Shown here one piece after another: positions 3,762 through 3,970 of a DNA stretch of 9,690 nucleotides. Source of the stretch: a virus. Taxonomy: Duplodnaviria; Heunggongvirae; Uroviricota; Caudoviricetes. Made by a program: the position numbers and the translations under genes. The notes under the pieces were generated by a model. That model did not search any database, was not told the DNA's origin, and saw nothing but the letters and a program-made list of their open reading frames with translations. Every line of letters starts with the position of its first letter. The first letter of the stretch is position 1. The DNA is taken from IMG/VR virus record IMGVR_UViG_2551306491_000022. One strand, written 5' to 3'.

Positions 3762-3970
3762 GCCCACCTCTACCCACTTTTTTCGCCCACTTTTTACGTT
3801 TTCCCACTTCGTCCAACGTGGGAAATTTGGGATTTATATCATCTTGTTTCATAGGTATTTTTTTAGTGCCCACTTTTTGGGATATATACACGTGGGAAAG
3901 TGGGTAATTTTGTTAAAATTCCGTTAAATTGCCCACCTTTCCCACTTTTAATGCCCACTTTTTACAGTGG
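3762..3970. repeat. Iteron-type origin of replication immediately 3' of the rep gene
   Basis: At least eight direct copies of (G/T)CCCACTTTTT-like units (around 3762, 3773, 3785, 3802, 3868, 3931, 3941, 3953) and inverted copies GTGGGAAA / AGTGGG (3818-3825, 3893-3906, 3965-3970). Spacing is about 10-17 bp, with AT-rich stretches in between (3826-3866, 3907-3930). The last iteron overlaps the rep stop codon. Confidence 0.65.

Follow-up and report, generated by a model that had tools for sequence, protein, structure and literature searches.

[quoted passage not shown]

Results

An iteron array occupies the gap after rep

[quoted passage not shown] The region is an array of short repeats (iterons) in the 202-bp intergenic gap (3760–3961) between rep (3962–5371, minus strand) and the next gene, which starts at 3759. 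The array contains 11 copies of an ~11-bp unit in both orientations at an irregular spacing of 9–17 bp. The iteron core is CCCAC on the plus strand and GTGGG in the direction of rep; the gene strand here is the minus strand, so the unit in the rep direction reads AAAAGTGGGC. The preliminary description had placed at least eight direct and several inverted units directly after rep, and the count of eight and three agrees with it. It had the units filling about 200 bp at 3762–3970; the repeat-filled stretch stands, and its span is corrected to the intergenic interval. The array and its units are as follows.

3761–3963, no strand assigned, iteron array and putative origin (11 copies of an ~11-bp unit, eight in one orientation and three inverted)
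3761–3771, plus strand, direct iteron, TGCCCACCTCT
3771–3781, plus strand, direct iteron, TACCCACTTTT
3784–3794, plus strand, direct iteron, CGCCCACTTTT
3801–3811, plus strand, direct iteron, TTCCCACTTCG
3867–3877, plus strand, direct iteron, TGCCCACTTTT
3930–3940, plus strand, direct iteron, TGCCCACCTTT
3939–3949, plus strand, direct iteron, TTCCCACTTTT
3952–3962 (3952–3962/3), plus strand, direct iteron, TGCCCACTTTT
3815–3825, no strand assigned, inverted iteron, AACGTGGGAAA
3890–3900, no strand assigned, inverted iteron, ACGTGGGAAAG
3897–3907, no strand assigned, inverted iteron, AAAGTGGGTAA

A pattern search of the whole window for CCCAC[CT]T found eight matches on the plus strand and one on the minus strand. 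All nine lie within 3763–3960, and the pattern is absent from the remaining ~9.5 kb. An unbiased search, in which the most repeated 8-mer was counted in each 220-bp window, gave 10 copies in the 220 bp after rep. In 42 control windows of the same size the highest count was 6 and the mean 3.4. The sequence CCCACTTT with one mismatch allowed was not enriched window-wide (11 found versus 9.3 expected). The iteron signal is thus one of clustering, as revealed by the stricter CCCAC[CT]T pattern and the 8-mer count. The rep stop codon is the complement of 3962–3964 (TTA), so the last iteron overlaps it by 1–2 bases. This overlap with the rep TAA, which had been noticed earlier, is kept in the alignment of all the E. 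coli variants described below.

Two iteron sets face each other across an AT-rich centre

The array divides into five segments.

3761–3825, no strand assigned, rep-distal iteron set of four direct and one inverted (3815–3825) units
3826–3866, no strand assigned, central AT-rich region of 41 bp (~40 bp), candidate DNA-unwinding element
3867–3907, no strand assigned, one direct iteron (3867–3877), a TGTATA(T/C)AT motif, and two overlapping inverted iterons
3908–3929, no strand assigned, minor AT-rich spacer bracketed by the opposed iterons 3897–3907 and 3930–3940, which form an inverted repeat
3930–3963, no strand assigned, three rep-proximal direct iterons (3930–3940, 3939–3949, and 3952–3962)

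Two sets of iterons, five copies at 3761–3825 and six at 3867–3962, lie on either side of the AT-rich centre, and the units that border it (3815–3825 and 3867–3877) are oppositely oriented. AT-rich stretches among the iterons, another element of the preliminary description, are therefore present at both 3826–3866 and 3908–3929. Positions 3832–3861 are 80% A+T and have a nearest-neighbor ΔG of −31.1 kcal/mol compared to a window mean of −41.0 (SD 3.7), which is ~2.7 SD less stable; this segment ranks only 7th among the least stable 30-mers of the window. The alignment of the E. coli variants shows that the length of the AT-rich centre and the TGTATA(T/C)AT motif are both conserved. There was no match to a DnaA box or an IHF site with up to one mismatch in 3760–3961, and the window-wide counts of both were at chance level. 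Rfam matched no family in the window. At the end away from rep, the outermost iteron overlaps the ribosome-binding site of the next gene (3757–3771; minus strand GAGGTGGGCAAATG).

The array lies in a probable Gram-negative PICI

Nearly all genes in the window are on the minus strand. Three of them form the surroundings of rep and the array.

5368–5667, minus strand, DUF4222 gene (Pfam E 2e-23), immediately upstream of rep and overlapping it
3508–3759, minus strand, gene for a conserved 83-aa protein (phrog_1231, E 6e-53), a RefSeq CDS in a near-identical island
3089–3511, minus strand, island-encoded single-stranded DNA-binding protein, SSB (Pfam SSB, E 4e-16)

The rep region is 99.7% identical to that of a ~10-kb island in E. 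coli O22:H8 strain 154, which is located between tRNA-Pro/yejM and yejO/narP. The gene order in strain 154 is integrase, helix-turn-helix regulator, Icd-like, small genes, DUF4222, 'helicase RepA family protein', a gap, a hypothetical gene, SSB, and a ClpP-protease/major-capsid fusion. In the window, the integrase, DUF4222, AAA_25, SSB, and protease-capsid genes are all recognized by Pfam; the AlpA-like match is weak (17.8 bits, below the Pfam cut-off of 21). The DUF4222 gene is the neighbor of rep in all of the E. coli variants and in EcCICFT073, and the ssb position is likewise occupied in EcCICFT073 and other variants. The 83-aa protein is probably part of the replication module. According to Table S1 of Fillol-Salom et al. 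2018 (ISME J, PMC6092414), the 'yejM-luxR' site is used by the catalogued PICIs EcCI11128, EcCIED1a.1, EcCIATCC25922, and EcCI11368.1. EcCI11128 has a RepA-family helicase (the same record as in variant L005) followed by a 201-bp gap and then the same small gene. The gene order, the Pfam assignments, the shared attachment site, the likeness to EcCI11128, and a cos-like segment described next mark the window as very probably a Gram-negative PICI, which supports the satellite context proposed from the sequence.

In lambdoid phages, cos lies just upstream of the small terminase gene. Positions 315–516 of the window match non-coding DNA of Stx1/Stx2-converting lambdoid phages at ~89–91% identity; in the phages this DNA follows the endopeptidase (Rz-like) gene and precedes the small terminase gene. 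Judged from this match, 315–516 probably serves the island as a helper-type cos site and gives a hint of the phages that mobilize it. There is no portal or terminase gene in the island.

Several other features of the window were recorded. Positions 540–2429 (minus strand) encode a 629-aa fusion of a ClpP-like prohead protease and a major capsid protein. In sister islands that have the same replication module, the major capsid gene is instead a separate one and may or may not be accompanied by small terminase, PerC, Mor, or ProQ/FinO genes; the packaging or interference module is mosaic among islands. The ssb region (3000–3450) is 60–62% G+C compared to 40–55% in most of the island, which suggests that the ssb gene has a different origin. 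Two pairs of diverged direct repeats lie within 6335–7431, one of 75 nt at 6679 and 7357 (81% identical) and one of 54 nt at 6335 and 7082 (80% identical). The members of each pair are 680–750 bp apart and fall inside an apparently spurious 496-aa minus-strand ORF (6301–7791). In related islands, small genes on the plus strand are annotated at this place (YlcI/YnfO family and hypotheticals), and Rfam finds nothing. This arrangement suggests a tandemly duplicated module of small genes or RNAs.

Rep is a RecA-type helicase with a predicted C-terminal winged helix

The protein encoded next to the array was analyzed by profile searches and structure prediction. The rep features are as follows.

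3962–5371, minus strand, rep, 469-aa initiator-helicase
3965–4174, minus strand, codons of the C-terminal winged-helix domain (Rep residues 400–469)
4007–4045, minus strand, putative recognition helix (Rep residues 443–455; TKHLKRWLAKLEK)

Rep consists of an N-terminal α/β domain (residues ~10–125), a RecA-type AAA_25 helicase core (residues ~150–390), and a predicted C-terminal winged-helix domain (residues ~400–469). AAA_25 is the sole Pfam family in Rep (E 3.7e-44). Among proteins of solved structure, the RSF1010 RepA hexameric helicase is the closest in sequence (E 0.0074), and the nearest structures to the core are RSF1010 RepA, T7 gp4, Twinkle, and RAD51/DMC1. Pfam returned nothing, even at E 10, for the C-terminal 75 residues of Rep, its N-terminal 140 residues, or the 83-aa protein. 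An AlphaFold2 model built on 22 homologues is poor over parts of the ATPase region and has pLDDT values of 85–93 in the N-terminal α/β domain and 88–91 across residues 400–469. The latter segment is modeled as three helices followed by a β hairpin. Residues 442–447, which covary with the iterons (see below), are placed by the model at the start of the third helix. The third helix is the usual recognition helix in winged-helix domains. A profile of the Rep C terminus had only non-significant matches among PDB sequences (Crp/Fnr-like 9day, MarR, and SlyA), and its weak, non-significant alignment to the MarR/SlyA recognition helices covers the same segment as the covarying residues. A Foldseek search of the PDB with the full Rep model returned only RecA-like and spurious long alignments and was uninformative; the model is multidomain and has a pTM of 0.43. 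A single-sequence AlphaFold2 prediction of the C-terminal 72 residues had a pLDDT of 52.5 and was therefore left out of the interpretation. The combination of a RepA-family (AAA_25) helicase with a confidently modeled C-terminal winged-helix domain substantiates the initial naming of this gene as rep. Rep is a RecA-type helicase that resembles RSF1010 RepA, unlike the helicase type of the staphylococcal or CFT073 islands.

The N-terminal domain has a distribution of its own. Residues 1–140 (4952–5371) occur as two alleles that are ~45% identical, the window type and the type found in variants L005, L006, and L009. The same domain is common to the otherwise unrelated primase-family initiator of EcCICFT073 (45% identity) and may be a common adaptor domain, for example, for a host or helper partner. 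Some Rep relatives have P4 α-like N-terminal primase domains (P0119: Prim_Zn_Ribbon, Toprim_3, and AAA_25).

The iteron core and the putative recognition helix change together

A 251-bp query around the array was compared to 5,426 complete E. coli genomes. Array-related sequences are present in 368 genomes; all are chromosomal and most are only 72–83% identical to the query. Relatives of the rep region are found in 1,493 of the 5,426 genomes at a median of two and up to eight places per genome, so related islands often reside together in one cell. Nine variants were retrieved, and the seven with an intact module (L002–L005 and L007–L009) were compared. The gap is 201–203 bp in all seven, and the positions of the iterons are kept while the spacer drifts to ~74% identity. 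All iterons, direct and inverted, switch their core in concert between variants. The core is CCCAC in the window and L002, CCCCAC in L003–L005 and L009, and CTCAC in L007 and L008, and also in L006, in which the downstream gene is truncated. The Rep helix changes along with the core: DTKHLKRW occurs with CCCAC iterons, E[IM]KHFRRW with CCCCAC iterons, and DVKNMRRW with CTCAC iterons. The DNAs of the window and L008 (strain 89-3156) are 92–100% identical on the flanks and only 56–90% identical across ~3750–4100, a block that consists of the array plus the last ~45 rep codons. The two Rep proteins do not differ before about residue 410.

A scan of one genome per species extended the comparison to 80 loci, 70 of which have an intact rep end. 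These loci are from Xenorhabdus, Pectobacterium, Serratia, Pantoea, Kosakonia, Morganella, Oceanospirillaceae, and others. At 65 of the 70 loci, repeat copies are more numerous directly after rep (220 bp) than in any control window of the same locus. The 70 loci plus eight E. coli variants gave 78 loci, not phylogenetically independent of one another, in which the residue pair at the start of the helix predicts the iteron core. KN is paired with GTGAG at 24 loci, KH with GTGGG(G) at 11 loci and with GTGGGGG at two more, KK with GTGGGGG at 23 loci, and KS with TGCGGC at eight loci. Among the array-bearing loci of the 78, none has KN, KK, or KS paired with the core of another class. Nine loci lack an array of at least four copies, and at least one of these (L065) ends at a contig edge.

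The helix codons adjoin the array, and one recombination event would move both, so some covariation is expected from linkage alone. Pure linkage is disfavored because all eleven sites change in concert with their positions kept, and because E. coli, Xenorhabdus, and an Oceanospirillaceae genome all show the same residue–base pairing. The joint change of the iteron core and the putative recognition helix, as read from aligned sequences, indirectly supports the idea that Rep recognizes the iterons.

The covariation also bears on the idea that a different protein binds the repeats, for example, the 83-aa protein, the DUF4222 protein, or a factor from the helper phage or the host, and that the array is perhaps a packaging- or partition-type site. 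Neither the 83-aa protein nor the DUF4222 protein has an assigned function, both are invariably linked to the array, and the specificity classes show some differences within residues 1–10 of the 83-aa protein. However, these few N-terminal changes are at the edge of the swapped block, and the 83-aa protein is otherwise nearly invariant across the CCCAC, CCCCAC, and CTCAC islands. The DUF4222 protein is the same record (WP_000770163.1) in the near-identical island L001 (CCCAC), L005 (CCCCAC), and L008 (CTCAC), and the DNA upstream of the swapped block is 98–100% identical between the window and L008. A packaging role for the array is unlikely given the separate cos-like segment that matches helper-phage DNA at 315–516, and the island has no partition genes to go with a partition site. 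We consider binding of the repeats by a protein other than Rep very unlikely.

Three further observations were made on individual loci. The annotated start of the 83-aa gene in L007 and L008 is ATA, with an ATG three codons on. L010 (E. coli 52F4, positions 1225–1703) is a decayed relative in which rep is cut to its C-terminal 120 codons; the 478-bp region after the rep remnant apparently contains two successive CTCAC-type iteron arrays. Six of the scanned loci (L055, L056, L060, L062, L064, and L066; Pantoea/Enterobacterales, Cedecea, and Pectobacterium) have a control 220-bp window within 3 kb of rep with 7–9 copies of an 8-mer, which equals or exceeds the count after rep. These extra repeats could be a second cluster or a tandem second island.

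The array is non-coding

Two ORFs are open across the array in the window, one of 127 aa (3508–3891, minus strand) and one of 60 aa (3745–3927, plus strand), which raises the alternative that the region encodes protein. Beyond the ATG at 3759, the upstream extension of the 127-aa ORF stays open for 51 codons in the window and for 51–71 codons in L002–L004, but it is closed after only 1–9 codons in four of the seven variants (L005, L007, L008, and L009). Single-base indels separate the variants across the array in the alignment, and the RefSeq annotation of the near-identical island has no gene at this position. By these sequence comparisons the 127-aa ORF through the array is an artefact, and the array is better read as non-coding, as had been proposed. 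A chance or decaying cluster of repeats without function is countered by clustering that is far above chance and kept from E. coli to Xenorhabdus and Oceanospirillaceae. The likelihood that the region is coding or a functionless cluster is negligible. The coding, packaging-site, and partition-site readings of the array were rejected on the evidence of the variants, the cos-like segment, and the gene content.

The array follows the plan of known satellite origins

[quoted passage not shown] The window has the position and the two iteron sets of these Gram-negative PICI origins, and the proposal that satellites carry a rep gene with its origin directly 3′ thus has a published precedent. The backbone is also the same: int, AlpA-like regulator, Icd-like, DUF4222, rep, ori, small hypothetical, ssb, and capsid-related genes. 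EcCI11128 shares both the attachment site and the Rep family of the window. EcCICFT073 has the same flanking genes, DUF4222 before and the small gene and SSB after, but its iterons are ~12 copies of TRTCTACC in both orientations in a 289-bp gap and are unrelated to those of the window. The initiator of EcCICFT073, a primase-family protein of 584 aa, has only the N-terminal ~130 aa in common with the window Rep (45% identity). The available text of PMC6092414 contains no description of the CCCAC/DTKHLKRW allele or of the helix–iteron pairing, and the cf-PICI preprint and the EcCIMP1 paper contained nothing useful on these origins.

The Rep proteins of the staphylococcal islands (SaPIs) are self-loading helicases with a C-terminal winged helix that reads 6–12 iterons directly after rep, and these iterons flank an AT-rich centre with opposite orientation on each side (summarized in Qiao et al. 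2022, NAR, PMC9371898). The SaPI replicons (Rep/PriRep, S. aureus) are like the window in their self-contained initiator-helicase and downstream iterons, and the predicted C-terminal winged helix of the window Rep would correspond to theirs. The SaPI Reps are of the AAA+/superfamily-3 type, whereas the core of the window Rep is RecA-type AAA_25. There is no detectable sequence likeness between SaPIs and the window in the proteins or the iterons, and the resemblance is one of mechanism and layout. The array layout is therefore already known for PICIs, and the putative origin is built on the published PICI/SaPI plan.

The equivalent position in EcCICFT073 and the SaPIs is a functional origin, which argues against the array being mainly a transcriptional operator through which Rep or another regulator controls read-through or initiation into the 83-aa gene, ssb, and the capsid module. 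An operator would be in keeping with the way the array fills the space to the next gene and reaches its ribosome-binding site, with winged-helix proteins often being repressors, and with the general knowledge that many initiators autoregulate via their iterons. However, the promoter and terminator scan found no σ70-like promoter or intrinsic terminator in 3400–4300, and the covarying helix belongs to a protein that also contains a replicative-type helicase. An AT-rich core between two opposed iteron sets is the layout of an origin and atypical for an operator. We regard a mainly regulatory array as unlikely. Binding of Rep could alter downstream translation or transcription, since the outermost iteron coincides with the Shine-Dalgarno region of the 83-aa gene, and the array may have a regulatory role beside its role as an origin.

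Other replicons share parts of the proposed origin system. RSF1010 RepA lacks a DNA-recognition domain, and a separate RepC reads the 20-bp iterons at the IncQ origin. RSF1010 (IncQ) RepA (PDB 1g8y) has a related helicase core, to which the window Rep adds a fused winged helix and an N-terminal domain. Pfam and the annotation reveal no separate initiator or primase gene in the island, unlike IncQ with RepC and RepB. The α protein of P4 is a multidomain initiator of an E. coli phage satellite, and its C-terminal domain binds short repeated octamers. P4 and the window are alike as E. coli satellites with a multidomain initiator and short repeats. P4 has two separated repeat clusters (ori and crr), whereas the window has a single cluster of different sequence, and Pfam finds no primase domain in the window Rep, unlike P4 α. 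Iteron plasmids (pSC101, R6K, RK2, F, and P1) combine a winged-helix initiator with direct iterons beside an AT-rich unwinding element, an arrangement that the window would share. Their iterons are 17–22 bp and phased compared to ~11 bp and mixed orientation here, and the DnaA boxes or IHF site expected of such plasmid origins are missing from the array. The window initiator is itself a helicase, unlike the Rep_3 initiators of iteron plasmids, and Pfam detects no Rep_3 domain in it.

Discussion

The starting points for a model of island replication are the observations made here on how the repeats are arranged and conserved, which domains make up Rep, what kind of satellite surrounds them, and how the iterons covary with the helix. 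We infer from them Rep binding, melting, self-loading, and origin activity. The published functional test is that of EcCICFT073, which has an unrelated helicase and unrelated iterons. Upon induction, the unidirectional island operon would be transcribed and Rep made. The C-terminal winged-helix domain of Rep would read the ~11-bp iterons, with residues 442–447 setting the specificity. Rep would then assemble on the two iteron sets that face each other across the ~40-bp AT-rich centre (3826–3866). The centre would melt, and the RecA-type hexameric helicase part of Rep would load itself without a separate loader. The island SSB, encoded two genes downstream, would coat the single strands, and host enzymes would copy the excised circle before packaging.

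The putative origin in the window is served by a RecA-type helicase with a winged helix, not by the initiator types studied so far. A broader proposal, which we put forward tentatively and at slightly less than even odds, is that the RepA-type (RecA-fold, AAA_25) helicase plus winged helix represents a distinct, uncharacterized class of self-loading satellite initiators across Enterobacterales. Specificity in this class would be reprogrammed by the swap of a ~350-bp cassette that comprises the last ~45 rep codons and the array. Under a simple, readable code, the fourth base of GTGNG would be G where residue 445 is His and A where it is Asn.

The known picture of PICI replication is unchanged by these results. 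They annotate 200 bp of non-coding DNA commonly present in E. coli, and they show the same island backbone used with at least two unrelated initiator types. The most useful by-product is the set of natural specificity-swap variants. These variants, with an otherwise identical Rep and different iterons, are a ready-made system for learning how a winged helix reads its site, and they allow specificity switching to be tested against cross-talk between co-resident satellites. If the cassette-swap code is true, several related islands would share one cell without cross-initiation.
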